From Flavobacteriales bacterium (GTDB lineage: Bacteria; Bacteroidota; Bacteroidia; Flavobacteriales_F; PHOS-HE28): a stretch of DNA of 64,000 nt. Below the pieces are notes generated by a model. That model searched no databases and was not told the DNA's origin. It worked only from the letters and a program-made list of their open reading frames with translations. Positions 17,854 through 57,631 of the stretch are shown one piece after another; the stretch's first letter is position 1, and every line of letters starts with the position of its first letter. The DNA lies in contig JBIQIX010000004.1 of the NCBI GenBank assembly GCA_044507815.1, positions 195,288 to 259,287 of the forward strand, read 5' to 3'. A program made the translations under genes and the position numbers.

Positions 17854-19005
17854 CTAGGCAGGCAGCACGCGTTGGTAAACCGCATCGAATTGCCGGGCCA
17901 CGGCAATGGCACTGAAGCGTTGCCCAATGCTGTTGCGTATGGCAGCTGGCCCGTACCGGTGATGTTCCGCTGCCATGCTGATCATGGCCTGCGCCAACGC
18001 GTTGTTGTTGCCCACCGGCACCAATATGCCATTTGCCGGGGTGATAAAAGCCTCTGGGCCGCCGCAACGCGTGGCGATCACGGGCTTGCCGCTGGCCAGT
18101 GCCTCGCCGGTGACCACGCTGAACGTTTCAACGTTGCTGTTGACGATCACCGAGCCGGCGCGCGCCATCATGGGCATTACCCCGGCCTGGGGCAGCCGAC
18201 CGTGCCAATGAACCACATCGCCCAGGTCCAACTCTTGGGCCAGGCGGTGCAGCATTTCACGGTCAGGTCCGCCACCGATCACCTCAAGTTTCAGGTCGTG
18301 CCCCTGCTTCCGCGCATTGGCCAGGGCGTGCAGCACACCGGAGATGTTCTTGATGCCGTCCACCAGGTCACCCACTACCAAGAATTGGTTGGAGGGGCCG
18401 GGGGCGGGCAGGGGCAGGTCCAAGCCGGGCACCACGTTGGGCACGATGCTCATTTCCTTGCCAAGCCCATGGCCTTCCATGGCCGCGGCCAGATGCTGGC
18501 TTACCGCCGTGGCAGCGGCGGCCTGCCGCAGCAGGAAACGGTCGAAATAACGCGCCGCACCGGATTTGGCCCGCCACCGGCCATTCAGGAAAACACTGCT
18601 TTGCTCACTGGCTATGAAGGGTACTCCCCATTTCCGGGCCAGCAGCCAGGCCATGTACACGCTTCGCGTAAGGATGTGGGCATGCACCAATTCCGGTTTG
18701 CCGCGCTCGCGCACCAAACGAGCGGTTCCCCTGGCCATGGCCTGTTGGTAACGCCGGTAGTTGATCGCTTTGCGCAAGGGCAGCACCGGACTTAGGCTTG
18801 GCCGGTAATAGCAGTGCAATTCCCATGCACCATCGGCAGTGTCCAGTTCCTCGCGGAACATGAGCGGCAATTCGGGCACAGGTGAGGCATGCACTACGCT
18901 CAACCGGTGCAACTGCGCCACGGCCAGCATTTGCTTGCGGATGAAATCGCCCAACTGCGGATCGGGCAGCCCCGGATACCATTTGGGCAAGGCAAGTACA
19001 TGCAT
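17854..19005 (-). CDS. Glycosyltransferase, GT4/GT1 family
   Basis: The C-terminal GT-B donor-binding region contains EALASGKPVIATRCGGPEAFI. The start was chosen at MHVLALPKWYP (19005) so that the gene does not overlap the tRNA-His. Confidence 0.75.
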   Translation of the reverse strand: MHVLALPKWYPGLPDPQLGDFIRKQMLAVAQLHRLSVVHASPVPELPLMFREELDTADGAWELHCYYRPSLSPVLPLRKAINYRRYQQAMARGTARLVRERGKPELVHAHILTRSVYMAWLLARKWGVPFIASEQSSVFLNGRWRAKSGAARYFDRFLLRQAAAATAVSQHLAAAMEGHGLGKEMSIVPNVVPGLDLPLPAPGPSNQFLVVGDLVDGIKNISGVLHALANARKQGHDLKLEVIGGGPDREMLHRLAQELDLGDVVHWHGRLPQAGVMPMMARAGSVIVNSNVETFSVVTGEALASGKPVIATRCGGPEAFITPANGILVPVGNNNALAQAMISMAAEHHRYGPAAIRNSIGQRFSAIAVARQFDAVYQRVLPA

Positions 19006-19079
19006 GCAGCCGCAAAGTAACGTGGTCTGCCCATGCCGATTATATTTGCGGCCCGTTTGGCGGCATGCCGACGGTCCAT

Positions 19080-19156
19080 GGTGGGTGTAGCTCAGCTGGT
19101 TAGAGCGTCGGATTGTGATTCCGAAGGTCGTCGGTTCGAGCCCGATCTCCCACCCC
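19080..19156 (+). tRNA. tRNA-His (anticodon GTG)
   Basis: Cloverleaf structure: acceptor GTGGGTG/CTCCCAC, D-arm AGCTCAGCTGGTTAGAGCG, anticodon stem TCGGA/TCCGA with loop TTGTGAT, T-arm GTCGG-TTCGAGC-CCGAT. The extra 5' G(-1) typical of tRNA-His is present. Confidence 0.85.
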
Positions 19157-19162
19157 CGGTAC

Positions 19163-19190
19163 AGCAGAAGGCCCTTTCGGGCCTTCTGCT
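19163..19190. terminator. Perfect 12-bp stem-loop between tRNA-His and the convergent CDF gene
   Basis: agcagaaggccc-tttc-gggccttctgct. There is no strong T-tract. Confidence 0.4.
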
Positions 19191-19199
19191 CGTTAGGGC

Positions 19200-20192
19200 C
19201 TAGCCCTCGGCCGTGTGCTTTTTGTCCTTCAGCACGCGGTCCAGCGTCCACGGGATCTTGCGCTTGAATGGCGCTTCGCGCACCGGGCAATCGAAGATCT
19301 GGCAAATGGTGCATGATGTGGGCGGGACACAGGGGTCCATGTGGATGAAGAACTCCACCTGCCGCCCCGAGGAGTCGCGGACCAGGTCGGCCAATTCAGA
19401 GATCTCGTGATGGCCGGCCTCCAGGGTGAAATACCAGGGAAGTGTTACATGTGCATCGATGTGGAGCGTGCTACCGTACTTGATCACCCTGAAGTTGTGC
19501 ATGTCTATCCATGCCGCCTTGCGATGCTCCTCGATGATCCGCACCAGGTCACCTGCCACGGCCATGTCCGTTTCATCCATGATCCCGCCCACGCTGCGGC
19601 GCACCATGTTGGCCCCTTGCCAAATGATGTAGGCGGCGAAGCCCACGGCGAACAGGCTATCGAGGCCGTGTATGCCGGTGAGCCAGATGGCGGCCAGCCC
19701 CAGCAGCAGGGCCGCCGTGGTCCAAGCATCGGAAAGCAGGTGCACGCCCCCCGCCTCCATGGTGAATGAGTGCGTGCGCCGGCCCCTTGAGCGCAACAGC
19801 ATGCCCATGCCGAGATTCACCAGGCCCGTGAGGCCGATGAGCAAAATGCCATCCGGGATATTGGAGACCACGTTCCCATGGATCCAGGCCATGACCGCGC
19901 GGTAAATGATCACCAGGCCCGCCAGCGCCACCATGGACCCTTCCAGCATGGCGCTGATGAACTCCACTTTTCCATGGCCATAAGGGTGCTCGCGGTCCTT
20001 TGGCTTGGCGGCCAGCACCAGGCTGTACAGCGCGAAACCACCTGCCACCACGTTCACGATGCTCTCCAGCGCGTCGCTCAGGATGGCGTTGCTGCCCGTT
20101 ACCCGCCAAGCGATGAATTTCACCGCCATCAATCCCACGCCCACTGCCAGGGCCACGGCTTGCAGGCGCACATGGGCACGGGCTTGGGCCAT
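19200..20192 (-). CDS. Cation diffusion facilitator family divalent-metal efflux transporter
   Basis: Six predicted transmembrane segments (signature SNAILSDALESIVNV) and a cytoplasmic C-terminal domain with a Cys-rich tail (CVPPTSCTICQIFDCP). Confidence 0.8.
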   Translation of the reverse strand: MAQARAHVRLQAVALAVGVGLMAVKFIAWRVTGSNAILSDALESIVNVVAGGFALYSLVLAAKPKDREHPYGHGKVEFISAMLEGSMVALAGLVIIYRAVMAWIHGNVVSNIPDGILLIGLTGLVNLGMGMLLRSRGRRTHSFTMEAGGVHLLSDAWTTAALLLGLAAIWLTGIHGLDSLFAVGFAAYIIWQGANMVRRSVGGIMDETDMAVAGDLVRIIEEHRKAAWIDMHNFRVIKYGSTLHIDAHVTLPWYFTLEAGHHEISELADLVRDSSGRQVEFFIHMDPCVPPTSCTICQIFDCPVREAPFKRKIPWTLDRVLKDKKHTAEG

Positions 20193-30266: not shown

Positions 30267-31607
30267 ATGTTCGAGAACCTAAGCGACAAGTTGGAACGCG
30301 CCTTCAAGGTGCTGAAAGGCCAAGGCCAGATCACGGAGATCAACGTGGCCGAAACGATGAAGGAGGTGCGGCGCGCCCTGTTGGATGCCGACGTGAACTT
30401 CAAAACGGCCAAGGAGTTCACCGATCGGGTGAAGGCCAAGGCCCTGGGCCAGGATGTGCTTACCTCGGTAAGCCCGGGCCAATTGCTCATCAAGATCACC
30501 CACGACGAGCTGGCTGCCCTTATGGGTGGCACCAATGCGGGCATCAACCTTTCCGGCAACCCGACGGTGGTGCTCATGAGCGGCCTGCAGGGCTCGGGGA
30601 AAACCACGTTCAGCGGCAAGCTCGCCAACTTCCTGCGGAAAAAAGGGCGGCGCGTGCTGCTTACTGCGGCCGATGTGTACCGCCCCGCGGCCATCGACCA
30701 GTTGGAGACCTTGGGCAAACAGCTCGATATCAGCGTTTACAGCGAGCGGGACAACAAGGACCCCGTGGCCATTGCACGCAATGCCGTGGCCCATGCCAAG
30801 CAGCATGGCTTCACGGCCGTGATCATCGATACCGCCGGCCGTTTGGCGGTGGACGAGGCCATGATGCAGGAGATTACGGCCATTAAGAAGGCCATCAGCC
30901 CGCAGGAAACCCTGTTCGTGGTGGATGCCATGACCGGCCAGGACGCGGTGAACACCGCCAAGGCCTTCAATGACCGCCTGGATATCGATGGGGTGGTATT
31001 GACCAAGCTGGACGGCGATGCCCGCGGTGGTGCTGCCCTTACCATCCGCAGCGTGGTGGACAAGCCCATCAAGTTCATCGGCACCGGCGAAAAAATGGAG
31101 GCCCTCGACGAGTTCCATCCCGACCGGATGGCCGGGCGCATCCTGGGCATGGGCGACGTGGTCTCGCTGGTGGAGCGCGCGCAGGAACAATTCGACGAAA
31201 AGCAGGCCCGTGCCCTGCAGAAGAAGATCGCCAAAGATCAGTTCGGCTTCGACGACTTCCTGGAGCAGATCCAGCAGATCAAGAAAATGGGCAATATGAA
31301 GGACCTCATGGCCATGATCCCGGGTGTGGGAAAGGCCATGAAGAACCTCGACATTCCGGATGATGCCTTCAAGGGCATTGAGGCCATCATCAGCAGCATG
31401 ACCCCGCATGAGCGCCGTGAGCCCTCGGTGATCAACGGTAGCCGCCGCCAGCGCATCGCCTCTGGCAGCGGCACCAACGTGGCCGAGGTGAACAAACTGA
31501 TGAAGCAGTTCGAGGAAACCCGGAAGATGATGAAAATGATGGGCGACAAGAGCAAGATGAAGGCGATGATGCAGCGCATGCAGCAGATGCAGGGCATGAA
31601 CCGCTGA
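30267..31607 (+). CDS. ffh: Signal recognition particle protein Ffh
   Basis: N domain, then a G domain with the GTPase motifs (GLQGSGKTT, DTAGR, TKLDGDARGG), then a Met-rich M domain at the C-terminus. Confidence 0.9.
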   Translation: MFENLSDKLERAFKVLKGQGQITEINVAETMKEVRRALLDADVNFKTAKEFTDRVKAKALGQDVLTSVSPGQLLIKITHDELAALMGGTNAGINLSGNPTVVLMSGLQGSGKTTFSGKLANFLRKKGRRVLLTAADVYRPAAIDQLETLGKQLDISVYSERDNKDPVAIARNAVAHAKQHGFTAVIIDTAGRLAVDEAMMQEITAIKKAISPQETLFVVDAMTGQDAVNTAKAFNDRLDIDGVVLTKLDGDARGGAALTIRSVVDKPIKFIGTGEKMEALDEFHPDRMAGRILGMGDVVSLVERAQEQFDEKQARALQKKIAKDQFGFDDFLEQIQQIKKMGNMKDLMAMIPGVGKAMKNLDIPDDAFKGIEAIISSMTPHERREPSVINGSRRQRIASGSGTNVAEVNKLMKQFEETRKMMKMMGDKSKMKAMMQRMQQMQGMNR

Positions 31608-31656
31608 CCAGCGAACCTTCGTCATTGCGCTTCGTTCCAACGGCCAAATACGGCTG

Positions 31657-33516
31657 TTGATGCGCTTGGAATGCCTGTTCGGCGTCTTTCTTTCAATTGG
31701 TGCCATGGCCCAAACCGGGCCTGCCGGCATTGGCGGCCCGCCCAGTAATCCGCTGTGGCTGGATGCCGGCACCGGGGTATTCAAGGGTGCCGGAAGCAAC
31801 CCGGCCGGCAACGGCGATGCCGTGCAACAATGGAACAATGTTTCCGGCAATGCCAGGCATGCACAACAATCGACAGCGCCCAACAGGCCGCAATACAGGG
31901 CGAACGTGCTGAATGGCCGGCCCGCTGTGCGTTTCAATGCCTCAAGCGGCACGCGCATGGCCATCTCGGCGTTGAACAGCTCCACGGCCGGAAAGGCTTC
32001 CCTGTGGGCCGTGGTCAGCTATTCCAGCTTGCCCAGCCCCAACCCCGGCGTGTTGCAGGGCACCGCCCCGGGCAACGTGTATTCCAGCATTCCAGCCGAT
32101 AAGAACATCGGCCTGTGGGTGAGCAACGTGCACAAGGTGTGGGGCAGGGGAATCCAAACCGATGGCGCAAGCGTGAATGTGCCCGCGGTCACTTCACTCT
32201 CGGCCAATACGTTCTACATCCTCAGCACACAGTACGATGGTACGCGGATCAGCCAGTATGTGAACAACGCTTCGGCAGGTGTGGCCAGCTACAACGGAAC
32301 CCTGCGGCCATGGCCCGATATGTCGATCGGCACCCAGGCCGGTACGGAGGGTTGGAATGGCGACATCGCCGAGGTGGTGGCCTTCAACACGGTGCTGAAT
32401 GGCACGCAGCAATTGATCATGGCCAACTACCTGGCAGCCAAGTACGGCCTTTTGCTCGGTGCCGACGATATCTACACGCAGGATGATCTGGCCAACGGTA
32501 ACTACGACCACGAGGTGGCCGGGATCGGACGGATATCGGCAACCGATATGCATACCTCGGCCAAGGGAACCGGCATTGTGCAGATCGCCGGTGCCACGGC
32601 TTTGGATAACAACGAATTCTTGATCTGGGGCCACGATGGCGGCACATTGGGCTCTTGGGGAGCAGGAGAACGCCCTGCGGGGGTAATGGAACGGCTGGTG
32701 CGGACGTGGCGGGTGAACGAAGTGAACCGCTCCGGAAACCCGGTGGACGTGGGCGCCGTGGACATCACCTTCGACCTGTCCGGCCTGGGGCCGGTGGTGG
32801 CCGCCGATCTGCGCTTGCTTGTGGACAGCAACAACGACGGTGCCTTCGCCGATGAATCGCCACTGGCCGGTGCGGTGGCATTGGGCGGCGGGCAGTACCG
32901 TTTCAACGGCATCTCCGCCCTAAAGAACAACGTCCGGTTCACCCTGGGCTCGGCCAACCGGGTAACCACGCCACTGCCCGTGGAATTGCTCCATTTCGAG
33001 GCCATTCCGCAGGGCAGGGAGGTGAGGCTGGCCTGGGCCACCGCAAGCGAAAGCAACAATCGTTGGTTCACCGTGGAACGCTCAGGCGATGCACTTGACT
33101 GGGAAGCTGTGGCCACTTTGCAGGGAGCGGGCAACAGCACCCAACCCCTGGAATATTCAACGCGCGACCTTGCACCCTTGGCAGGCACCAGTTATTACCG
33201 CTTGCGCCAGACCGACCACGATGGAAGAACCACATTTTCCGAAGCGAGGCCCGTGGTGAGGGGCATGCCCGCTCCGGTCATCATTTACCCGAATCCCGCC
33301 CGCGGGCCTTTCTCGGTGATGCTTGATCCCATGGAAGAGGATGCCACGGTGGAGCTGGTCGATATGGATGGACGTGTGCTGTGGCAGCGTACCTCAGCAG
33401 GGGCGGGCACCCGTGTGCTTGTGGATATGGCGGAGCTGCCTGCCGCGATGTACATGGTCAGGATCGCATCAGGCCAACATTCCCGCGCAGGAAGGTTGGT
33501 TGTTCCGGCCCATTGA
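31657..33516 (+). CDS. Secreted protein with a LamG/concanavalin-like domain and a type-A T9SS C-terminal sorting domain
   Basis: Signal peptide (MMRLECLFGVFLSIGAMAQ); LamG-like motif (GWNGDIAEVVAFNTVLN); a C-terminal domain with IIYPNPARGPFSVML…VELVDMDGRVL…YMVRI. Confidence 0.6.
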   Translation: MMRLECLFGVFLSIGAMAQTGPAGIGGPPSNPLWLDAGTGVFKGAGSNPAGNGDAVQQWNNVSGNARHAQQSTAPNRPQYRANVLNGRPAVRFNASSGTRMAISALNSSTAGKASLWAVVSYSSLPSPNPGVLQGTAPGNVYSSIPADKNIGLWVSNVHKVWGRGIQTDGASVNVPAVTSLSANTFYILSTQYDGTRISQYVNNASAGVASYNGTLRPWPDMSIGTQAGTEGWNGDIAEVVAFNTVLNGTQQLIMANYLAAKYGLLLGADDIYTQDDLANGNYDHEVAGIGRISATDMHTSAKGTGIVQIAGATALDNNEFLIWGHDGGTLGSWGAGERPAGVMERLVRTWRVNEVNRSGNPVDVGAVDITFDLSGLGPVVAADLRLLVDSNNDGAFADESPLAGAVALGGGQYRFNGISALKNNVRFTLGSANRVTTPLPVELLHFEAIPQGREVRLAWATASESNNRWFTVERSGDALDWEAVATLQGAGNSTQPLEYSTRDLAPLAGTSYYRLRQTDHDGRTTFSEARPVVRGMPAPVIIYPNPARGPFSVMLDPMEEDATVELVDMDGRVLWQRTSAGAGTRVLVDMAELPAAMYMVRIASGQHSRAGRLVVPAH

Positions 33517-35265: not shown

Positions 35266-36849
35266 ATGCGATTTCCAGTGATGCTGCTTGGGGCAGCACT
35301 AATGGCCACAACCTCTGTGGCCGCCCAAAAGAAAACAAACAAGGCCACCGTGAATTGGGGCCCCGACCTTACCGAAAAGGAGAACGGTTCATTCGATGAA
35401 GTGGTCGGCGATAACGGAACATCCACCTTCCTGCTCGTGGACCGCAAGAAGGGCAAGTTCATACAGCGGATGGACGGGCTGAAAATGGCGTGGGAAAAAC
35501 CGCTTGAGCTGAAGATGGACAAAAAGGACATGCGCCTTGAACGGATCATGCTCACGGATGCCGAGATCCATGTGTTCACCAGTTTGTACGACAAAAAGCA
35601 GAACGAAAACCGGCTGTACGTTTCAAGCTATGACCAACAAGGCTTTGCACCGGGTAGGCAATTCCAGTTGCTGGCAACCATGCACGCAGAGAAGCAGTCG
35701 AATGCGGGCACATTTTTCATGCAGCTTTCGCCCGGCAAGGGCAAGATCCTGGTGAATGCCACACCGCCGTATGATAAGAAGTCCACGGAGCGTACCACTA
35801 TGCATATGTTCAGTTCAGACCTGCAGCTGCTATGGTCCCAGGAATTCAAGCTGCCATACACCGATGAGGAATTCAAGATGGAGAGCTGGCGTGTGGATGA
35901 TGACGGCGCCGTGGTGCTCCTCGGCGTGAAGTATGCGTCGAAGCAGGAACGGAGGGAACTCAAGCGTGCCAACCAGGCCACTTACGAATATCATTTGCTG
36001 GTGTACGACGGTGCTTCCGCACAACCTTCGGACAACCTGATATCCGTACCGGATAAATTCCTGCAGGACATGACCATTTCCATGGGTGCCACAGGCGACA
36101 TTTTATGCGGAGGCCTTTACGGGAACAAAGGCAGCTTCAGCGTGCGCGGGGCCTACTATCTGCGGTTGGACCGCAACTCCAAGCAGGTCGTGCACGCGAG
36201 TTATAAGGAATTCTCGGATGACTTCATCACTTCCTACATGGAGGAAAAAGCCGCTGCCAAGGCGAAGAAAAAGGCCGATAAAAAGGGGGAGGAGCTTGAG
36301 CTTCCGGAATTCCAGCTGAACGATATCATCCTCCGCGACGATGGCGGGGCCGTGTTGCTGGCCGAGCAGTACATCGTGCGGGAGGTGACCACCACCTACA
36401 CCTCCAACGGCCAAACGTACACCACCACGAGCACGCACTACTATTACAACGACCTGTTGGTGATCAACATTGACCCAAGCGGCGACATACAGTGGGCGAT
36501 AAAGATCCCCAAGCGCCAACACAGCGTGAACGATCAAGGACGTTTCAGCGGGGTGGCGGTGAACGTGAAGCAAGACAAGATCTACTTCGTGTTCAACGAT
36601 ACCGGTGAAAACCTCTTCCTCAAGCCGGGCGACAAGGTGAAGCAATTCGCGCTCACCGGAAAAGATGCACTGGTGGTGCTGGCCACCGTGGATGCCAACG
36701 GGACGGTAAGCCGCGAGGCCCTGTTCTCACCCGATCGGCGTGACGTGATCCTTCGCCCCAAGGATTGTGTGGAGCTGGAGGACGAAAGCATGTTCATATA
36801 CGCCAACCGTAAAAAGGATTACCGGTACGGGCTGATCACCTTCAAGTGA
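35266..36849 (+). CDS. Hypothetical secreted protein (527 aa, Lys/Glu-rich), no recognisable domain
   Basis: Signal peptide (MRFPVMLLGAALMATTSVAAQ) and a clean long ORF. The local GC content (about 52–55%) is lower than the ~62% background. Confidence 0.5.
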   Translation: MRFPVMLLGAALMATTSVAAQKKTNKATVNWGPDLTEKENGSFDEVVGDNGTSTFLLVDRKKGKFIQRMDGLKMAWEKPLELKMDKKDMRLERIMLTDAEIHVFTSLYDKKQNENRLYVSSYDQQGFAPGRQFQLLATMHAEKQSNAGTFFMQLSPGKGKILVNATPPYDKKSTERTTMHMFSSDLQLLWSQEFKLPYTDEEFKMESWRVDDDGAVVLLGVKYASKQERRELKRANQATYEYHLLVYDGASAQPSDNLISVPDKFLQDMTISMGATGDILCGGLYGNKGSFSVRGAYYLRLDRNSKQVVHASYKEFSDDFITSYMEEKAAAKAKKKADKKGEELELPEFQLNDIILRDDGGAVLLAEQYIVREVTTTYTSNGQTYTTTSTHYYYNDLLVINIDPSGDIQWAIKIPKRQHSVNDQGRFSGVAVNVKQDKIYFVFNDTGENLFLKPGDKVKQFALTGKDALVVLATVDANGTVSREALFSPDRRDVILRPKDCVELEDESMFIYANRKKDYRYGLITFK

Positions 36850-45544: not shown

Positions 45545-48500
45545 TTAGCGACCCAGCAGGGCATTGAGGTGAAGTGTGGTCAGGCCCAATTGGAGCAGCA
45601 CATCGAGGTGGGCCTCCTCGATCGCCCTGGCTTGTTCCATGCCTTGCAGGAATTCCATGTAGCTGGCCTCGCCGCTTTGGTAGGCCCGGGTGGCATCATG
45701 GCGCAGGGCCGTGGCCAACGCCGTGCCTGTGCCCTGGTAGTATTCGAGGCTTTGTTGCAATTGGGTCCATTGGGCGCGTGTAGCGGTCAGTTCGGCCACA
45801 CGCCCGCGGCGCAGTTCCTCGTATTGTTGTTCGGCGATCTCGCTGCGCAGGCGGGCCGCACGGGTCTGCGCTCCCTGTCCCGAACCGGGCAGGGGGATGG
45901 AAGTGCCGAGCACGTAACCTTTGTATGGGAATACGCCATCGATGGATTGGAGGATCGCACCGGCTTGCAATGATGGCGCCCATTGGGCGCGCTGCATGCG
46001 CCATTCGGCCCCGGCCACTTGGGCCCGTTGCCGTGCCGATGCCAGCACGGGGTCGTGCCCAGCGTCTGCCGGCGGGTCGGTTAGCTGTGTTGCCATGCGG
46101 GCCAAGGCGGCGGTATCGGCGACGGCCCCGGCCAGTGGGCCGGTCCATTGTTCAAGTTCAACCGCAAAAACAGCCACGTCCGAGCTTGCCTTTTGCCATT
46201 GCAGCCTGGCCTGGTCGGCAGCGCTTTTCGCGCTCATGGCCTCCAAGCGTCCGCTTTGGCCCAGCTGGAATTTGCGGTCGGCCATGCTGGCCAGCAGTTG
46301 CATTGCGCTGTCGTTGCGCTGCAGTAGCCGTGCGCGCCAGGTGGCGGCCGACCACTGCAGGTAGGCCCCGGCCACGTTTTCGCGCACGGCCGCACCGATG
46401 CGCTGCCGGTCGGCCTCGGCTAAGCGCAGGCTTTCCTGCAAGTAGCGGCTGCGTTGGGCAATGGCCGTGGGGAACGGGATACCGGTAACGGCTTGCAGGT
46501 TGAAATCGTGGGCGGCACTGTTGATCTGCCCGCCCTGCAGCTGGGCGCTGACCGGTTGGAGCTGTAATGCGGTTTTCTTCAGGGCCTGCTGCTGCCGCAC
46601 GTCCAGTTCGGCGGCCGTAATGGCAGGGTGGCCCCGCATGGCGCGGGCGATGGCCGTATCAAGGGGCAGCACGGGCGCCTGCGCGCTTGCCGGCACGGCC
46701 GCCGTAATGGCCAAGGCGAGCACCATGATGGGCGCGCCGCCTGGGGAATCGCGCTTCTGCTTCCGTTTCCTGCGCATGAACACCCAGTGGTAGAGCACGG
46801 GAACCACGGCCAGGGTGAGCAGGGTGGAGGTTATGAGACCCCCGATAACCACCGTGGCCAAGGGACGTTGCACTTCTGCGCCGGGGCTGGTGCTGATGGC
46901 CATGGGCAGGAAGCCGAGCGAGGCCACGGCAGCGGTGGCCAGCACGGGCCGCAAGCGGGCCATGGTGCCGCGCACCACGCGCTCGGTCACGTCCTCCACG
47001 CCGTCCGCCTTCAAGCGGTTGAAATAGCTCATGAGCACGATGCCGTTGAGCACCGCCACGCCGAAGAGCGCGATGAAGCCGATGCCCGCGCTGATGCTGA
47101 AGTCCAGCCCGCGCACCCACAGGGCGAGCACGCCGCCCACCGCGGCCATGGGCACAGCGCTGAAGATGATCAGCGCTTCGCTGAGCGAGCGGAAGGCGAA
47201 GTAAAGCAGCACGAAGATGAGGGCCATGGCCAGCGGCACGGTGAGCAGCAGCCGCGCGCTGGCTTCCTGCAAATTCTTGAACGTGCCGCCGTAGCTGACG
47301 AACCAGCCGGTGGGCAGCTTCAGGTCGCGGCCGATCACGGCTTGGATATCTTCCGCCGTGCTTTGGATGTCGCGGCCCCGCACGTTGGCTTCCACCACGA
47401 TGCGCCGCGCGCCGTTCTCGCGGCTCACCTGTGCGGCCGCGCTTTGGAAGCTCACTTCGGCCAGTTGCCCCAGTGGGATCTGCTTGCCCGTGCCGGGCAG
47501 CGGCACCAGAATGCTCTTCACTTTATCGGCGTCCGCATCGCGCATGTCGGCCAGGCGCACCACCAGGTCGAAGCGGCGTTCACCTTCATACACCACGCCG
47601 GCGTGGCCGCCCGCCAAGGCGGTGTTCAGTACGCGGTTCAGCTCGGCGATGTTCAGCCCGTACTGCGCCACGCGGGCACGGTCGTATTTCACCACGAGTT
47701 GCGGCATGCCGGTCACCTGCTCCACCTTGATGTCCGTGGCCCCGGGCACCGTGGCGATCAGCGCGGCGGCTTCATTGGCCTTCTTGAACATGTGGTCGAG
47801 GTCGTCGCCGTAGATCTTCACCGCGATGTCGCTCTTCACCCCGGCGATCAGTTCGTTGAAGCGCATCTGGATGGGCTGCTCGAAGCTGAGGTTGATGCCG
47901 GGGATCACGCCGAGCTTTTCGGCCATCAGCTCCGCCATCTTCTCGCGGTCCTTCGTGGTGGTCCAGTCCTTGCGTTCCTTCATCACGATGATCAGGTCCT
48001 GGCTTTCCATGGGCATGGGGTCGGTGGGGATCTCGCTGCTGCCGATCTTGCCCACCACCTCCTTCACTTCCGGGAATTCCTTCATCAGGATGCGCGCGGC
48101 CTGATCGCTCACGGCGATGCTCTGGCTGAGGTTGCTTCCTTGGCGGATGGTGAGGTTGGTGGCGAAGTCGCCTTCATCCAGTTCGGGGATGAACTCGCCG
48201 CCCAAGCGGTTGAACACGAACAGCGAGATCACCACCAAGCCCAAGGCACCCGCCAAGGTGGACTTGCGGTGGCGCAGCAATCCCTTCAACTTGGGCGCAT
48301 ACCATTGCTGCAGGCGGTGTACCATGCGCTCGCTCCAGCTTTCACCTTTCGGGATCTGACGGTCCATGAAGAGTGAGACCACCCACGGCACATAGGTGAC
48401 GCTGAGCAGCAGTGCGCCGATGATGGCGAAGCTGACGGTGAATGCCATGGGGCGGAACATCTTGCCTTCGATGCCCACCAGGGCGAAGATGGGCACGTAC

Positions 48501-49873
48501 ACGATGAGGATGATCACCTGGCCGAAGACGGCGCTTTTCATGATGCCTCCGGCCGAGCGGATCGTCTCGTCGCTCATTTCCTTCTTGGTGAGAAGGGCTC
48601 CTGCGTGGCGCTTGTGCAGGGCGAAGAGCATGCCTTCCACCACGATCACCGCGCCGTCCACGATGAGGCCGAAATCCAGCGCGCCCATGCTCATCAGGTT
48701 GGCGCTCTGGCCGGCCACCACCATGCAGCCGATGGCGAACAGCAGCGCGAGCGGGATCACGCTGGCCACGATGAGGCCCGCGCGCCAGTTGCCCAGCAGC
48801 AGCAGCAGCACGGCGATCACGATCAACGCGCCCATCAGCAGGTTGTGCTCCACCGTGCCGATGGTCTGCGCCACCAGCTTGGAGCGGTCCACGAAAACAT
48901 CCACGTATACGCCTTCGGGCAGGCTGTGCCGCACCTCTTCCATGCGCTCCTTCACGGCGGTGACGGTGGCCATGGCGTTGGCGCCCTTCATCATCAGCAC
49001 CACGCCGCCCACGGCTTCGCCTTGGCCGTTGCGCGTCATGGCACCGTAGCGCGTGGCATGGCCGAACTGCACTTCGGCCACATCGCGCACGCGCACCGGA
49101 CTGCCGCCGCGCGCCTCGATCACCGTGTTCTCCAGGTCCTTTAGGGAACTCACTAAGCCTTCGCCGCGGATGAAGTAGATGTTCGGCCCTTTCTCGATGT
49201 AGCTGCCACCGGTGTTGGCGTTGTTGCTCTCCAGCGCGTTGAACACGTCCAGCAGGGAAAGCCCGGCACCGGCCAGCTTGCGCGCGTCCACGCGGACTTC
49301 ATACTGTTTCAGCAGGCCGCCGAAGCTGCTTACGTCGATCACGCCCGGCACGCCCAGCAGGTGTTGGCGCACCACCCAGTCCTGCAGCGTGCGCAGTTCC
49401 ATCAGGTCGAATTGGCCTTGGTGGGCGCTGTCCACGGCGAGGGTGTACTGGTAGATCTCGCCGATGCCCGTGGTGGGCGGCGCCATTTCCGGGGTGCCGT
49501 ATCCGGCGGGGATCTGGCTTTGGGCCTGTGCAATGCGCTCCTGCACCAATTGGCGGCTGAGGTAGAGCGGCACGTTGTCCTTGAAGACCACCGTGACCAC
49601 CGAGAGGCCGCTGCGCGAAACGCTGCGCAACTCCACCAGGTCGGGCAGGTTCTTGAAGGCCTGTTCCAGCGGGAAGGTGATGAACTGTTCCACCTCCTGC
49701 GTGGCGAGGTTGGGCGCAATGGTGTTCACCAGCACCTGGTTGTTGGTGACGTCGGGCAGCGCGTCGAGGGGCAGCTGGGTGACGGACCATGCGCCCCAGC
49801 CGATGAAGGCCAGGAGCAGCAGGCCTGTGATGAGCTTGTTGCGTACGGAGAACGAGATGATACGTTCGATCAT
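45545..49873 (-). CDS. CzcA/CusA-type heavy-metal efflux RND permease fused in frame to a TolC-like outer-membrane efflux protein module
   Basis: Residues 1–1032 form a 12-transmembrane RND permease (MIERIISFSVRNKLITGLLLLAF…). With no intervening stop codon this continues into MRRKRKQKRDSPGGAPIMVLALAITAAVPASAQA (a signal-peptide-like segment; ATG at 46777) and about 410 aa with outer-membrane-efflux-protein family helical-repeat character. Confidence 0.7.
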   Translation of the reverse strand: MIERIISFSVRNKLITGLLLLAFIGWGAWSVTQLPLDALPDVTNNQVLVNTIAPNLATQEVEQFITFPLEQAFKNLPDLVELRSVSRSGLSVVTVVFKDNVPLYLSRQLVQERIAQAQSQIPAGYGTPEMAPPTTGIGEIYQYTLAVDSAHQGQFDLMELRTLQDWVVRQHLLGVPGVIDVSSFGGLLKQYEVRVDARKLAGAGLSLLDVFNALESNNANTGGSYIEKGPNIYFIRGEGLVSSLKDLENTVIEARGGSPVRVRDVAEVQFGHATRYGAMTRNGQGEAVGGVVLMMKGANAMATVTAVKERMEEVRHSLPEGVYVDVFVDRSKLVAQTIGTVEHNLLMGALIVIAVLLLLLGNWRAGLIVASVIPLALLFAIGCMVVAGQSANLMSMGALDFGLIVDGAVIVVEGMLFALHKRHAGALLTKKEMSDETIRSAGGIMKSAVFGQVIILIVYVPIFALVGIEGKMFRPMAFTVSFAIIGALLLSVTYVPWVVSLFMDRQIPKGESWSERMVHRLQQWYAPKLKGLLRHRKSTLAGALGLVVISLFVFNRLGGEFIPELDEGDFATNLTIRQGSNLSQSIAVSDQAARILMKEFPEVKEVVGKIGSSEIPTDPMPMESQDLIIVMKERKDWTTTKDREKMAELMAEKLGVIPGINLSFEQPIQMRFNELIAGVKSDIAVKIYGDDLDHMFKKANEAAALIATVPGATDIKVEQVTGMPQLVVKYDRARVAQYGLNIAELNRVLNTALAGGHAGVVYEGERRFDLVVRLADMRDADADKVKSILVPLPGTGKQIPLGQLAEVSFQSAAAQVSRENGARRIVVEANVRGRDIQSTAEDIQAVIGRDLKLPTGWFVSYGGTFKNLQEASARLLLTVPLAMALIFVLLYFAFRSLSEALIIFSAVPMAAVGGVLALWVRGLDFSISAGIGFIALFGVAVLNGIVLMSYFNRLKADGVEDVTERVVRGTMARLRPVLATAAVASLGFLPMAISTSPGAEVQRPLATVVIGGLITSTLLTLAVVPVLYHWVFMRRKRKQKRDSPGGAPIMVLALAITAAVPASAQAPVLPLDTAIARAMRGHPAITAAELDVRQQQALKKTALQLQPVSAQLQGGQINSAAHDFNLQAVTGIPFPTAIAQRSRYLQESLRLAEADRQRIGAAVRENVAGAYLQWSAATWRARLLQRNDSAMQLLASMADRKFQLGQSGRLEAMSAKSAADQARLQWQKASSDVAVFAVELEQWTGPLAGAVADTAALARMATQLTDPPADAGHDPVLASARQRAQVAGAEWRMQRAQWAPSLQAGAILQSIDGVFPYKGYVLGTSIPLPGSGQGAQTRAARLRSEIAEQQYEELRRGRVAELTATRAQWTQLQQSLEYYQGTGTALATALRHDATRAYQSGEASYMEFLQGMEQARAIEEAHLDVLLQLGLTTLHLNALLGR

Positions 49874-49969
49874 GCACGGGTGGGCGCAAGGGCAGCCCGG
49901 GATTAAGAAGGAAGGACTTGGGAAAAGGGGACGCCAACAGGCATTGCCGGGCGCGCGGGCGCTATGCAC

Positions 49970-50610: not shown

Positions 50611-51837
50611 TCATTGCTTCATGTCCAAACGCTCTTCCTTTTTTTCTGCTACCCCACCGATGATCGGCAGTCGCTCGAAGGGCTTGTTGCGGTCGAACAG
50701 GTAGCGGTAGGTGGCCAAGGTGCGGTAATTGGCGGCACCGAGGTTCTCGCAAACGCGGAGCATCTTGGGGTTGAAATCGCCGACCCAGGTGAGCACCGTT
50801 TCCTTGTACCGCCGTGTTTTTTGCAGCCATTCGCTCATGAATGCGATCATGGCGCCTTCCACGCCCTTGCCCTGCCATTCCTTCACCACACCGAACACGA
50901 TCCCGGTCATGGTGGTGGCAGTGCCCCACCATTTGTGCCAAAGGAATTTCAATTTGCCCCACCAGCCCAGGCTGCCGTTCAGGTGCCGGAAGATCTCGTT
51001 CAATTCGGGCAGGTTGATGTAGAACGCGATCGGCTTGCCCCGGTGGTAAACGAAAACAACGATGCGCGGGTCCATCACCGGCTTCATCTGTTTTATGGTC
51101 TTCAGGGCCACTTCCTTGGGCATGGGCCTGAAGCCTTCGTGATCCACCCACGCCTCATTCAATACGGTGCGGAAATCCTCGGCAAGCTGTTCTGTGGACA
51201 TGCCCCGCACATTGCGGACCACGAAATCGGGATCATTTTGGAATTGGCGGTATTTGCGCACGAAAATGGGCTGTGATGGCTCCAGTGCGTCGCGCTTGAA
51301 AAAGAGCTGCCGGAAGTAGAGCTTGAAGCCGTAGCGCTCGAAAAGTTGAACGTAGTAGGAGGGGTTGTAATTGGTACCGTAGATCGGCGGGTCGGTGAAG
51401 TTCTCGATCAGCAATCCCCAGAACATGTTTCGTTCGCCCAGGTTCACCGGGCCGTCCATGGCCTCCATGCCTTGTGCCTTCAACCATGCCTTGGCGGTGT
51501 CGAAAAGCAGGTCTGCGGCGCGCTGGTCGTTGGTGCATTCAAAAAAGCCGCAGCCGCCAGTGGGTTGCTGCTTGTCGGTCCAGGCCGTCTTGGGATCCAC
51601 CCAGGCGGCGATGCGGCCGATGGCCTGCCCGCCATCATCATATAGCACCCACCGTTTGATGCTGCCCGGCTTGCGGTCGGGGCGGGGTTGCAGCAGCTTG
51701 TTCTTGGCCGGGTCGAAAACGCGCTCCACATCCTGTTCCAGGTGTGGGACCCAGTTGCTGTCGCCTGCATAGATCTTCCAAGGCAGCCGTTTCCAATCGC
51801 GCAGGGCCCGGCCGCTGGCCGCTTCCATGATCTTCAT
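50611..51837 (-). CDS. Hypothetical protein with an acyl-CoA N-acyltransferase (GNAT/FemAB-like) fold
   Basis: A 408-aa ORF. The family assignment is tentative and based on overall similarity of its sequence blocks to Bacteroidota proteins annotated as GNAT-family. Confidence 0.4.
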   Translation of the reverse strand: MKIMEAASGRALRDWKRLPWKIYAGDSNWVPHLEQDVERVFDPAKNKLLQPRPDRKPGSIKRWVLYDDGGQAIGRIAAWVDPKTAWTDKQQPTGGCGFFECTNDQRAADLLFDTAKAWLKAQGMEAMDGPVNLGERNMFWGLLIENFTDPPIYGTNYNPSYYVQLFERYGFKLYFRQLFFKRDALEPSQPIFVRKYRQFQNDPDFVVRNVRGMSTEQLAEDFRTVLNEAWVDHEGFRPMPKEVALKTIKQMKPVMDPRIVVFVYHRGKPIAFYINLPELNEIFRHLNGSLGWWGKLKFLWHKWWGTATTMTGIVFGVVKEWQGKGVEGAMIAFMSEWLQKTRRYKETVLTWVGDFNPKMLRVCENLGAANYRTLATYRYLFDRNKPFERLPIIGGVAEKKEERLDMKQ

Positions 51838-55485: not shown

Positions 55486-55510
55486 CCATCGGCACCATGC
55501 CGACCAAAAA

Positions 55511-55538
55511 GGGGGCCGTGCACCGGCCCCCTTTTTTT
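55511..55538. terminator. Bidirectional rho-independent terminator
   Basis: aaaaa-GGGGGCCG-tgcac-CGGCCCCC-TTTTTTT, lying between convergent fkpA (plus strand) and the DUF551 gene (minus strand). Confidence 0.7.
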
Positions 55539-55577
55539 GTTGCACCCGGCCCAGCATGGCCTGTGCGGCAGGTACGG

Positions 55578-55859
55578 TCAATCTATTTCCGGTCCTCCGG
55601 GCAGCGGCCTCCAATGGGTCACCCGCTCGAAGAAAAAGTTGCTGCATCCTTCACCAAGCCAGAAATGGCGGTGCGTGGCGCGGCCGGTCTTGCTGGGGTT
55701 CTTGATGAACCAATCCTCCGCGAAGCGCAATAACACCACCTCCCTCAGCTCGGTCTGCTGCAAACCCGCTAGGTGAGCGGTGTTGCCCGGCACCCAGCAA
55801 AGCACGCGCTGGCCATCCGTGGGCAGGCGCTCCTTACAACTGATCCATCCCTTATCCAT
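55578..55859 (-). CDS. DUF551-domain small protein
   Basis: MDKGWISCKERLPTDGQRVLCWVPG… matches the DUF551 N-terminal consensus (W-I-S-x-x-[DE]-R-L-P). Its ATG overlaps the malate synthase stop codon as ATGA. Confidence 0.5.
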   Translation of the reverse strand: MDKGWISCKERLPTDGQRVLCWVPGNTAHLAGLQQTELREVVLLRFAEDWFIKNPSKTGRATHRHFWLGEGCSNFFFERVTHWRPLPGGPEID

Positions 55860-57418
55860 CAGCGGTCTGTGCAGGCCAGTTCGGTCTCCAGCAACAACAG
55901 CTCCGGGGGTGGCTTTTCGCCAAGCACCACCCGGGTAAGGAATTGAGCGGCCAGCTGCGCGCGCTCATGCAGTGCACCGCCCTCCATGCGGAACATCTTC
56001 TCGCCTTCCTTGCGGATCAGGAATTTCATGACATCGGAATGCACTTCAAGGCCGGTGGCGGTGATGTAGCAATGCTCACTTTGGGTCCAATGCCAAAGGA
56101 GAAGCATGGAAAGCCGCACCGACGATCGGTCGTGCAATCTTCCGCCCTGCACCACCAGCCCGCGTTCGCGGAAATGCACCAGGCCCTTGATCACCGTCCG
56201 TATGCAGCGTTGCATGCCCTCCGTGGTCAGTTCGCCCTGCGGATGCTGCACCAGCTCGGACATGCCGATGCGGTCAGGCCGCTGGTAGTACATCTGATGT
56301 GCGCGCGGCATGCTTTTGTTGAACTCGGTCATGGCCGGGTTCACCAGCCCGGGGTGTGCCACCAGGGTGCCGTCGTGCCCGTCCACGGCCTCACGCTCCT
56401 TGTCGGCGATCATTTCCAGGTAACGCGGTTGCAGGGTGCCTTGATCCTCCGGCGGCAGCACGAAGGCCGGCGCGCCCATGGCGTGCGCCTGCCTACGGTG
56501 GCATATGCTGATCAGCTTCAGGCTAACGCTGCGCAGAAAGACGGCATCGAGCCCGATGTGCTCGCGGTCGGGCAGCACCGGGGATGCAGGGGTGCTGAAC
56601 AACGTGATGTGGTCCGCGGCGTAGCCCTGCGGGTCGAATGCCAGCCCTGCACTGTGGTGGCGCAGGGCGTACAATATCTCATCGGCTTCCAGCACCGCCT
56701 GCAGGCTGTCCACCATCACCGTGGCCCGTATGCTCCCCTTGGGCAGCCCAATGTGCCTTTCGAGGAAGTCGAACTGATGGGCCCACAGTTGCGCCTCTTC
56801 ATGGCCGGCCACCCCACGGAGGTAGAAATAGATGCCCTTTTGGCGGCTGTACAATTGCGTGCCGCTGCTGGCCACATGCACGGCCAGGTCCAGGAAACTG
56901 GCGGGGGAAGGCCCATGGCCCGCGAACCCGGGGTCTTCGATATGCAGCGGCCGGGGTGCCACCATTAACCGCGTATTGGTGCCGGGGTTGATCCGGACCC
57001 GCTCGCCCAGGTCGGAGATGTAGGAGAGGCGCAGGTTGGCGGCACGCGCAATGTTCCGGTGGGCCTTGTGCACGGCCTCGGCCTCGTTGCAGGTCATGTT
57101 CCACAGATCGGCCACGTAGCTCTTGGCACCTGCGTTCAGCCCCTCGATCAACTCCTTCCGGCTGCACCCGCCGATCAGTTCTACCCGGCGTTCCAGCAGC
57201 TCGGGAGGGGCGGGTTCCACCGTCCAATCGCCATCGCGCAATGCGCCGGTATCCGGCGGTGGGGCCAAGGCGCCCGCGCGCAATTCCTGCCGCCGTGTCT
57301 CTCGTTTTTCCAATAACTCCTTGCGCATCGCGCCGGATCGGTCCTGCATTTCCTGCGCCCATGCAAGGGCCTTGCCGCCAAGCCAGCGGTCGAGGGATGC
57401 AACAGAAGGGGGTGCCAT
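55859..57418 (-). CDS. aceB: Malate synthase A
   Basis: Colinear with AceB: VEPAPPELLERRVELIG…, a conserved core, and the catalytic-region motif GHDGTLVAHPGL. Confidence 0.75.
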   Translation of the reverse strand: MAPPSVASLDRWLGGKALAWAQEMQDRSGAMRKELLEKRETRRQELRAGALAPPPDTGALRDGDWTVEPAPPELLERRVELIGGCSRKELIEGLNAGAKSYVADLWNMTCNEAEAVHKAHRNIARAANLRLSYISDLGERVRINPGTNTRLMVAPRPLHIEDPGFAGHGPSPASFLDLAVHVASSGTQLYSRQKGIYFYLRGVAGHEEAQLWAHQFDFLERHIGLPKGSIRATVMVDSLQAVLEADEILYALRHHSAGLAFDPQGYAADHITLFSTPASPVLPDREHIGLDAVFLRSVSLKLISICHRRQAHAMGAPAFVLPPEDQGTLQPRYLEMIADKEREAVDGHDGTLVAHPGLVNPAMTEFNKSMPRAHQMYYQRPDRIGMSELVQHPQGELTTEGMQRCIRTVIKGLVHFRERGLVVQGGRLHDRSSVRLSMLLLWHWTQSEHCYITATGLEVHSDVMKFLIRKEGEKMFRMEGGALHERAQLAAQFLTRVVLGEKPPPELLLLETELACTDR

Positions 57419-57631
57419 GGGTGAAGGCCCTTTCAACGCGATGGAACGTTCCGGGGTTCTTGAATGGTGCGAAGTTCGCGAACATTGGCCGGTTTGCCGT
57501 GCCCGGGACGGGTTGATATGCTGCACTCCCGGCCGCCCGGCCCGGGATGGCACCGCTCGTGTACCGGCCAGGCAAGCGCTGGAACACAATTCCTACATTC
57601 GGCCTCCCTTATCGCCATAAGGCCGCGAAGC

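Follow-up and report, generated by a model that had tools for sequence, protein, structure and literature searches.

A malate synthase-like gene and a stand-alone DUF551 gene form a conserved chromosomal pair in an uncultured lineage of Flavobacteriales

The locus described here lies in a 64,000-nucleotide (64-kb) stretch of contig JBIQIX010000004.1 from a Flavobacteriales bacterium (assembly GCA_044507815.1), which we refer to as the window, and it consists of two minus-strand genes, one for a malate synthase-like protein (MSL) and one for a small protein with a DUF551 domain. Three described systems come closest to it. The first is malate synthase A (AceB; EC 2.3.3.9; TIGR01344; PDB structures 3cuz and 3cux). 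Asp447 is the catalytic base of this enzyme, and the active sites of the A, G and H malate synthases are equivalent (PMC3112382); UniProt entry P08997 gives Arg166 and Asp447 as active-site residues (quoted in PMC11347633). The second is the DUF551 proteins of phages and prophages, for example, YfdS of Escherichia coli CPS-53 and the C-terminal domain of variant V2 of the Stx-phage protein Ea22. The DUF551 literature gives the domain no defined molecular function and mentions only YfdS and the Ea22 variant; a YfdS mutant is sensitive to peroxide (PMC10834534, PMC4776307). The third is the alkB operons, in which an AlkB-family gene stands at the head and small or accessory genes follow, as with AlkB and the rubredoxin AlkG (8f6t). 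The role of alkB genes in Bacteroidota is unclear (PMC4021335).

The two genes make up an operon on the chromosome of an uncultured, Cryomorphaceae-like lineage of Flavobacteriales; their association is genuine, and its conservation far exceeds what chance would give. The reading that we favor, with moderate confidence and from sequence comparison, is that MSL carries out an acyl-CoA reaction other than that of malate synthase, that the DUF551 protein is an accessory factor and that the locus is the reduced form of a metabolic module that in many relatives also includes an alkB gene.

MSL is a member of the malate synthase superfamily. It matches the TIM-barrel model PF01274 with 158.5 bits against a gathering score of 26.4, it has the architecture and length of malate synthase A, and its residues 13-505 align with the B. 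anthracis enzyme (3cux; phmmer E 9.5e-75), 3cuz being matched as well. However, it scores far below the cutoff of the NCBIfam malate_syn_A equivalog TIGR01344 (292.8 versus 594.5 bits). Relatives of MSL are named 'hypothetical protein' by NCBI and 'malate synthase' by JGI. When 1.84 billion representatives were searched exhaustively, the MSL clade amounted to about six clusters at 50% identity, and beyond it, the search scores fall to those of ordinary malate synthases. At the level of sequence, MSL is a divergent malate synthase A paralogue that is limited to one Flavobacteriales lineage. We found no relevant literature on bacterial malate-synthase-like paralogues, nor any described activity other than malate synthase in this fold family.

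The active site of MSL displays a consistent pattern of loss and replacement. Numbered as in E. coli AceB and aligned with 34 members of the clade, Asp447 and Arg168 (D430 and R156 in the window protein) are retained in every member, and MSL keeps the scaffold motifs RRVE, PDR, CHxR and HDGT. In contrast, three other residues are replaced in all 34, namely Arg166 (by Val, Ala or Gly), Glu250 (by Asp) and Asp278 (by Gly, Ala or Ser). We take Glu250 and Asp278 to be the Mg2+ ligands, as in the structures of malate synthases A and G. The GRWDY segment reads DPQGY, with Asp for Gly275 in 31 of the 34 proteins, Pro for Arg276 in 33 and Gln for Trp277 in all of them. Glu119 and Asp120, near the active site, are Trp and Asn in 33 of the 34, and the residues on either side of the base, Glu446 and Ala448, are His and Arg throughout, so that E-D-A becomes H-D-R. 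The signature [KR]-[DENQ]-H-x2-G-L-N-x-G-x-W-D-Y-[LIVM]-F, presumably PROSITE PS00510, is matched by E. coli AceB, and neither the window MSL nor any of 120 clade proteins matches it.

The replaced positions carry motifs that are conserved within the clade (ADLWN, DPQGYAADH and RLHDRSS). Because these positions are near-invariant and polar and because the ratio of nonsynonymous to synonymous substitution rates (dN/dS) of MSL is 0.11 (against the related locus L003), the active site looks rebuilt rather than decaying. Within the malate synthase fold, these proteins form a tight subfamily whose active site appears rebuilt and is strongly conserved. They also expose an annotation trap. A preliminary description of this locus, made from the DNA alone, had called the gene aceB, as some pipelines call other proteins of the clade malate synthase; the label does not survive the equivalog score and the clade-wide replacement of Arg166 and both presumed Mg2+ ligands, and it would wrongly suggest that these Flavobacteriales possess one half of the glyoxylate shunt.

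A separate observation concerns the malate synthase A family as a whole. Of 119 other cluster representatives of the family (P0176-P0318), 62 retain the canonical Arg/Glu/Asp/Asp set and 57 lack at least one of Arg166, Glu250, Asp278 and Asp447. There seem to be many unrecognised divergent paralogues in the family outside the MSL clade, although some of these cases may be alignment artefacts or fragments.

The linkage of MSL to DUF551 was followed in both directions. Searching species-representative genomes with MSL gave 27 loci, all of them in metagenome-assembled genomes labelled Flavobacteriales or Bacteroidota, the nearest relative of the window carrying the label Cryomorphaceae. A DUF551 gene lies directly downstream of MSL on the same strand in all 27, which answers positively the question, raised in the preliminary description, of whether orthologous loci have the same small gene. 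The reverse search, with DUF551 against metagenome contigs, gave 64 loci, 57 of them with enough upstream DNA, and MSL is present in 53 of these 57. The pair is intact even at three loci where the flanking genes differ (L016, L020 and L024); the rearranged flanks there, with unrelated type IX secretion cargo and oxidoreductase genes, offer no functional hint.

The distance between the two genes is less constant than their order. In the window, the letters at the junction are CGC-TGA-TGG, the stop codon of MSL and the start codon of DUF551 having the single base A55859 in common, and no terminator separates the genes. The preliminary description had proposed coupling through an ATGA overlap. 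The overlap of stop and start is there; the letters are TGATG, with one shared base, and the arrangement is not conserved. The same stop-to-start distance of -1 (UGAUG) is found in L003, three genomes have -4 (ATGA), 20 other genomes of the 27 have between +2 and +98 nucleotides, and no ATG could be assigned in L023 and L027; overall, the distance is mostly below 40 nucleotides. Since the spacing varies from -4 to +98 nucleotides, it is the tight linkage that is conserved and not coupling of the overlap type. In this genome, the UGAUG junction is likely, from its sequence, to be a site of termination-reinitiation, by which the DUF551 protein would be translated after MSL. A programmed frameshift yielding an MSL-DUF551 fusion was considered and rejected: no slippery heptamer precedes the stop, the spacers vary among relatives and no fused protein occurs among 120 + 120 homologues.

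Some of the relatives have a third gene. At 27 loci, including five of the 27 species genomes, MSL is directly preceded on its own strand by an alkB-family gene, which stands between the M16 peptidase gene and MSL, and a separate gene call gives the same order (FA_desaturase - MS_TIM-barrel - DUF551). At L056, L091 and L094, DUF551 is preceded not by MSL but by a gene for a 370-390-amino-acid membrane protein of the FA_desaturase superfamily (PF00487). This protein is an AlkB homologue (E 5e-76 to the alkane 1-monooxygenase PDB 8f6t), and the AlkB-type histidine boxes HELGHR, EHNRGHH and RHSDHH can be read in the translated open reading frames (ORFs). Taken together, DUF551 stands directly behind MSL and/or alkB, on the same strand, at 69 of 70 informative loci (Table 1). 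The 27 loci with alkB ahead of MSL resemble alkB operons in having the AlkB-family gene at the head, followed by small or accessory genes. They differ in what follows, which is MSL and DUF551 rather than rubredoxin, aldehyde dehydrogenase or acyl-CoA synthetase. The window is further removed from alkB operons in that no alkB-like gene was found anywhere in the 64 kb of this subclade. We infer that the locus in the window is a cut-down version of an alkB-MSL-DUF551 cassette specific to this lineage, with DUF551 as the constant member.

Table 1. Features of the MSL-DUF551 locus in the window, and alkB-family genes and gene arrangements at related loci.
Feature	Coordinates or number of loci	Strand	Remarks
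MSL (malate-synthase-A-family paralogue, 519 amino acids)	55859..57418	-	start ATG 57418, stop TGA 55859-55861
Stand-alone DUF551 protein, 93 amino acids	55578..55859	-	start ATG 55857-55859, stop 55578-55580
MSL/DUF551 stop/start overlap UGAUG	55857..55861	-	read from the sequence
Bidirectional intrinsic-terminator-like hairpin	~55500..55540		between convergent DUF551 and FKBP genes; from folding
Divergent intergenic region, 213 nucleotides	57419..57631		MSL (-) versus M16 peptidase gene (+, ATG 57632)
alkB-family gene (examples)	L015:6415-7476, L021:6871-7923, L022:6862-7953, L056:2808-3980, L095:1792-2862
Arrangement MSL-DUF551	39 loci		window included
Arrangement alkB-MSL-DUF551	27 loci
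Arrangement alkB-DUF551	3 loci		L056, L091, L094
Arrangement DUF551 alone	1 locus		L052
Loci too short for full scoring	22

The DUF551 protein itself, with the N-terminus MDKGWISCKERLPTDGQRVLCW, is a true member of its family, as had been proposed for it from the sequence: residues 4-91 cover all 68 positions of the PF04448 model (1-68 of 68) with 48.3 bits against a cutoff of 22. PHROGs 924, 7704 and 60, to which no function is assigned, also match it. It shares with the phage proteins the full-length model match, the WI..RLP start, the THW.PLP end and the predicted fold. Its AF2 model (pLDDT, the predicted local distance difference test, 91.3) is a mostly-beta barrel, and a Foldseek comparison with BFVD lists mainly DUF551 proteins (best match E 2.2e-5, TM 0.65-0.71). 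On this model, the protein is an SH3/Tudor-like beta-barrel.

It differs from the phage proteins in that it is a free-standing single-domain protein encoded on the chromosome among housekeeping genes, in its lineage-wide selection and in its length, with 88 residues on the 68 model positions, or about 20 more than the Pfam model. The most conserved block of the protein, FAEDWFIKNPSKTGRxTHRHFWLGEGxSNxFF (residues 46-77), would correspond to these extra residues. A profile search gave 393 clusters at 90% identity; the 120 of them that were listed are all 90-111 amino acids long, and every named one is a 'Flavobacteriales bacterium'. Across 43 aligned homologues, 24 columns are invariant. The dN/dS of the gene against five relatives is 0.10-0.21, which is strong purifying selection (MSL, with its dN/dS of 0.11, is under purifying selection too), and no close viral relative turned up when IMG/VR was scanned with a pattern. 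DUF551 is here a long-domesticated chromosomal gene and not a phage remnant. As a rare non-phage, single-domain example in a metabolic operon, it offers a tractable way into a domain that is common in phage genomes. Two candidate roles, as an acyl carrier (CitD-like) or as a rubredoxin-like partner, were tried and rejected, since the barrel is mostly beta and the protein has a single invariant Cys, which cannot provide a rubredoxin-type iron centre.

How might such a module work? MSL would no longer condense Mg-bound glyoxylate with acetyl-CoA and has probably taken on another acyl-CoA-dependent reaction. The full alkB-MSL-DUF551 cassette would likely serve hydrocarbon- or lipid-derived substrates, the alkB link in relatives suggesting a tie to hydrocarbon or lipid oxidation in Bacteroidota, and the SH3/Tudor-like DUF551 protein would probably be a small accessory or adaptor of the module rather than an exclusive subunit of MSL. 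Another activity of MSL would explain why no isocitrate lyase gene (aceA) is nearby. The preliminary description had remarked on that absence, and tblastn indeed found no aceA in the window or in about 90 related loci, which fits MSL not being an enzyme of the glyoxylate shunt; without the canonical catalytic Arg and Mg ligands, the puzzle of a malate synthase lacking its isocitrate lyase mostly disappears. A bolder version, that MSL and DUF551, joined in many genomes by an AlkB-family hydroxylase, form an undescribed enzyme system, with new acyl-CoA chemistry at the rebuilt MSL active site that lacks the canonical Mg2+ ligands and with a phage-derived, SH3-like DUF551 protein as dedicated accessory subunit, we regard as unlikely. 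Were it true, DUF551 would gain its first molecular function, and the fold family would for the first time have an activity besides that of malate synthase.

Several observations weigh against the module that we favor. The evolutionary rates of MSL and DUF551 are correlated in a way that is not distinctive (partial r 0.47 versus 0.63 for the unrelated pair M16a-FKBP), and this result does not separate a functional module from a passenger gene. Synteny extends over the whole neighborhood (M16-M16, cassette, FKBP-hydrolase), and being neighbors therefore says little by itself about a functional link. At the three alkB-DUF551 loci and at the one locus where DUF551 stands alone, few if any of its invariant residues have changed. 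At L095, an IS110 element lies between MSL and an intact DUF551, and at L097 (4428-5988), MSL is split into three ORFs (161, 200 and 154 amino acids) while DUF551 is intact. Finally, sequence alone leaves room for some residual malate synthase-like chemistry in MSL, because the change of Glu250 to Asp is conservative and Asp447 is retained.

The strongest alternative, possible and yet in our judgment somewhat improbable, builds on most of these points: DUF551 would be an anciently domesticated, autonomous gene, for example, for protein or nucleic-acid binding as with other SH3/Tudor-like barrels, it would stand at the end of any transcript that chanced to be upstream, and its link to MSL would be inherited synteny. 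The gene and its conserved residues do persist where MSL is absent (L052, L056, L091 and L094), split or separated by the insertion element, and it adjoins the unrelated convergent FKBP gene about as consistently as it adjoins MSL; the undistinctive rate correlation also speaks for a passenger. However, every recovered DUF551 locus is at the same position, with only one of the 70 not behind MSL or alkB, many genomes have a very short gap or an overlap, the window lacks an internal -7 motif of the Bacteroidetes type ahead of DUF551, and the pair stays intact where its flanks change.

A quite improbable alternative is that MSL is a catalytically dead scaffold, sensor or regulator, with the DUF551 protein as its binding partner. 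In its favor, only one of the four core catalytic or metal residues survives, and no gene of the block evolves faster than MSL (mean distance 0.67, versus 0.58 for FKBP and 0.43 for DUF551). Yet the former active-site positions hold new near-invariant polar residues (Asp, Gln, His, Asp and Arg) beside an invariant Asp447, and this pattern, with the low dN/dS, is more consistent with an altered catalytic site than with an inactive one. The weakest alternative, a working glyoxylate-shunt aceB with aceA elsewhere in the genome and a co-translated, phage-derived DUF551, can draw on the full-length homology to malate synthase A structures, the JGI name, the retained Asp447, the conservative change at Glu250 and one archaeal malate synthase reported to be Mg-independent (PMC3112382), but it is very improbable given a score of about half the equivalog cutoff, the loss of Arg166, Asp278 and GRWDY in every clade member, the name withheld by the NCBI pipeline, the absence of aceA from the 64 kb and all related loci, and a conserved same-strand upstream partner that, where present, is an alkB-family gene and not aceA.

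Two of the loci with a disturbed MSL have details of their own. The element in L095 (4529-5518) encodes an IS110-family transposase (DEDD_Tnp_IS110, Transposase_20) on the opposite strand, in a 2.4-Mb contig of GCA_016712535.1. The DUF551 protein of L097 is identical to that of L096, which has an intact 509-amino-acid MSL upstream; the split in L097 could be pseudogenisation or could come from assembly frameshift errors.

The operon is closed on its downstream side by a hairpin of the intrinsic terminator type, made up of an A-run, an 8-bp GGGGGCCG stem, a 5-nucleotide loop and a T-run. The two arms (GGGGGCCG/CGGCCCCC) are G+C-rich, and A-U pairing of the flanking runs lengthens the stem to 12-13 predicted pairs. 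The computed folding energies are -38.5 (minus strand) and -32.6 kcal/mol (plus strand), with z-scores of -3.9 and -3.2, none of 200 shuffled sequences folds as well, and the hairpin is absent from the output of a simple terminator scanner. The proposal of a two-gene unit followed by a strong bidirectional terminator agrees with these values. On the upstream side, the divergent intergenic region is presumed to hold the promoter of the operon; the Bacteroidetes-type motif TAnnTTTG (-7) occurs neither in this region nor within 300 nucleotides upstream of the DUF551 ATG.

The surroundings are those of an ordinary chromosome. Within about 10 kb, the neighbors encode M16 peptidases, FKBP, an alpha/beta hydrolase, YaaA, shikimate kinase and UvrB, and farther genes in the window encode type IX secretion cargo, ArgRS, FolD and a RecF-like protein. 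As had been stated at the outset, there is no integrase or other phage gene nearby: none was found within about 10 kb on either side, nor in the other large ORFs scanned to about 39 kb, those at 40-45 kb lying outside the scan. With its housekeeping neighbors, lineage-wide synteny and no IMG/VR relatives, the locus does not have the character of a prophage or of mobile cargo. Membership in a defence system was considered as well and rejected, PADLOC models giving no match to MSL or DUF551 at E up to 0.01.

A few other genes of the window are recorded here. An ORF of about 1442-1474 amino acids (45545-49969, minus strand) has both ACR_tran (RND transporter) and OEP domains and seems to join a pump of the inner membrane and its outer-membrane channel in one unusual fusion protein. 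Three ORFs have no Pfam match, namely 50611-51837 (minus strand, 408 amino acids), 35266-36849 (plus strand, 527 amino acids) and 30279-31985 (minus strand, 568 amino acids); the last two may be genuine genes or spurious ORFs of high G+C content. The longest ORF for a GT4 glycosyltransferase (17854-19314, minus strand) contains in its 5' part a tRNA-His gene (19080-19157, plus strand), and this overlap implies that the true start of the glycosyltransferase is farther downstream than that of the mechanically called ORF.

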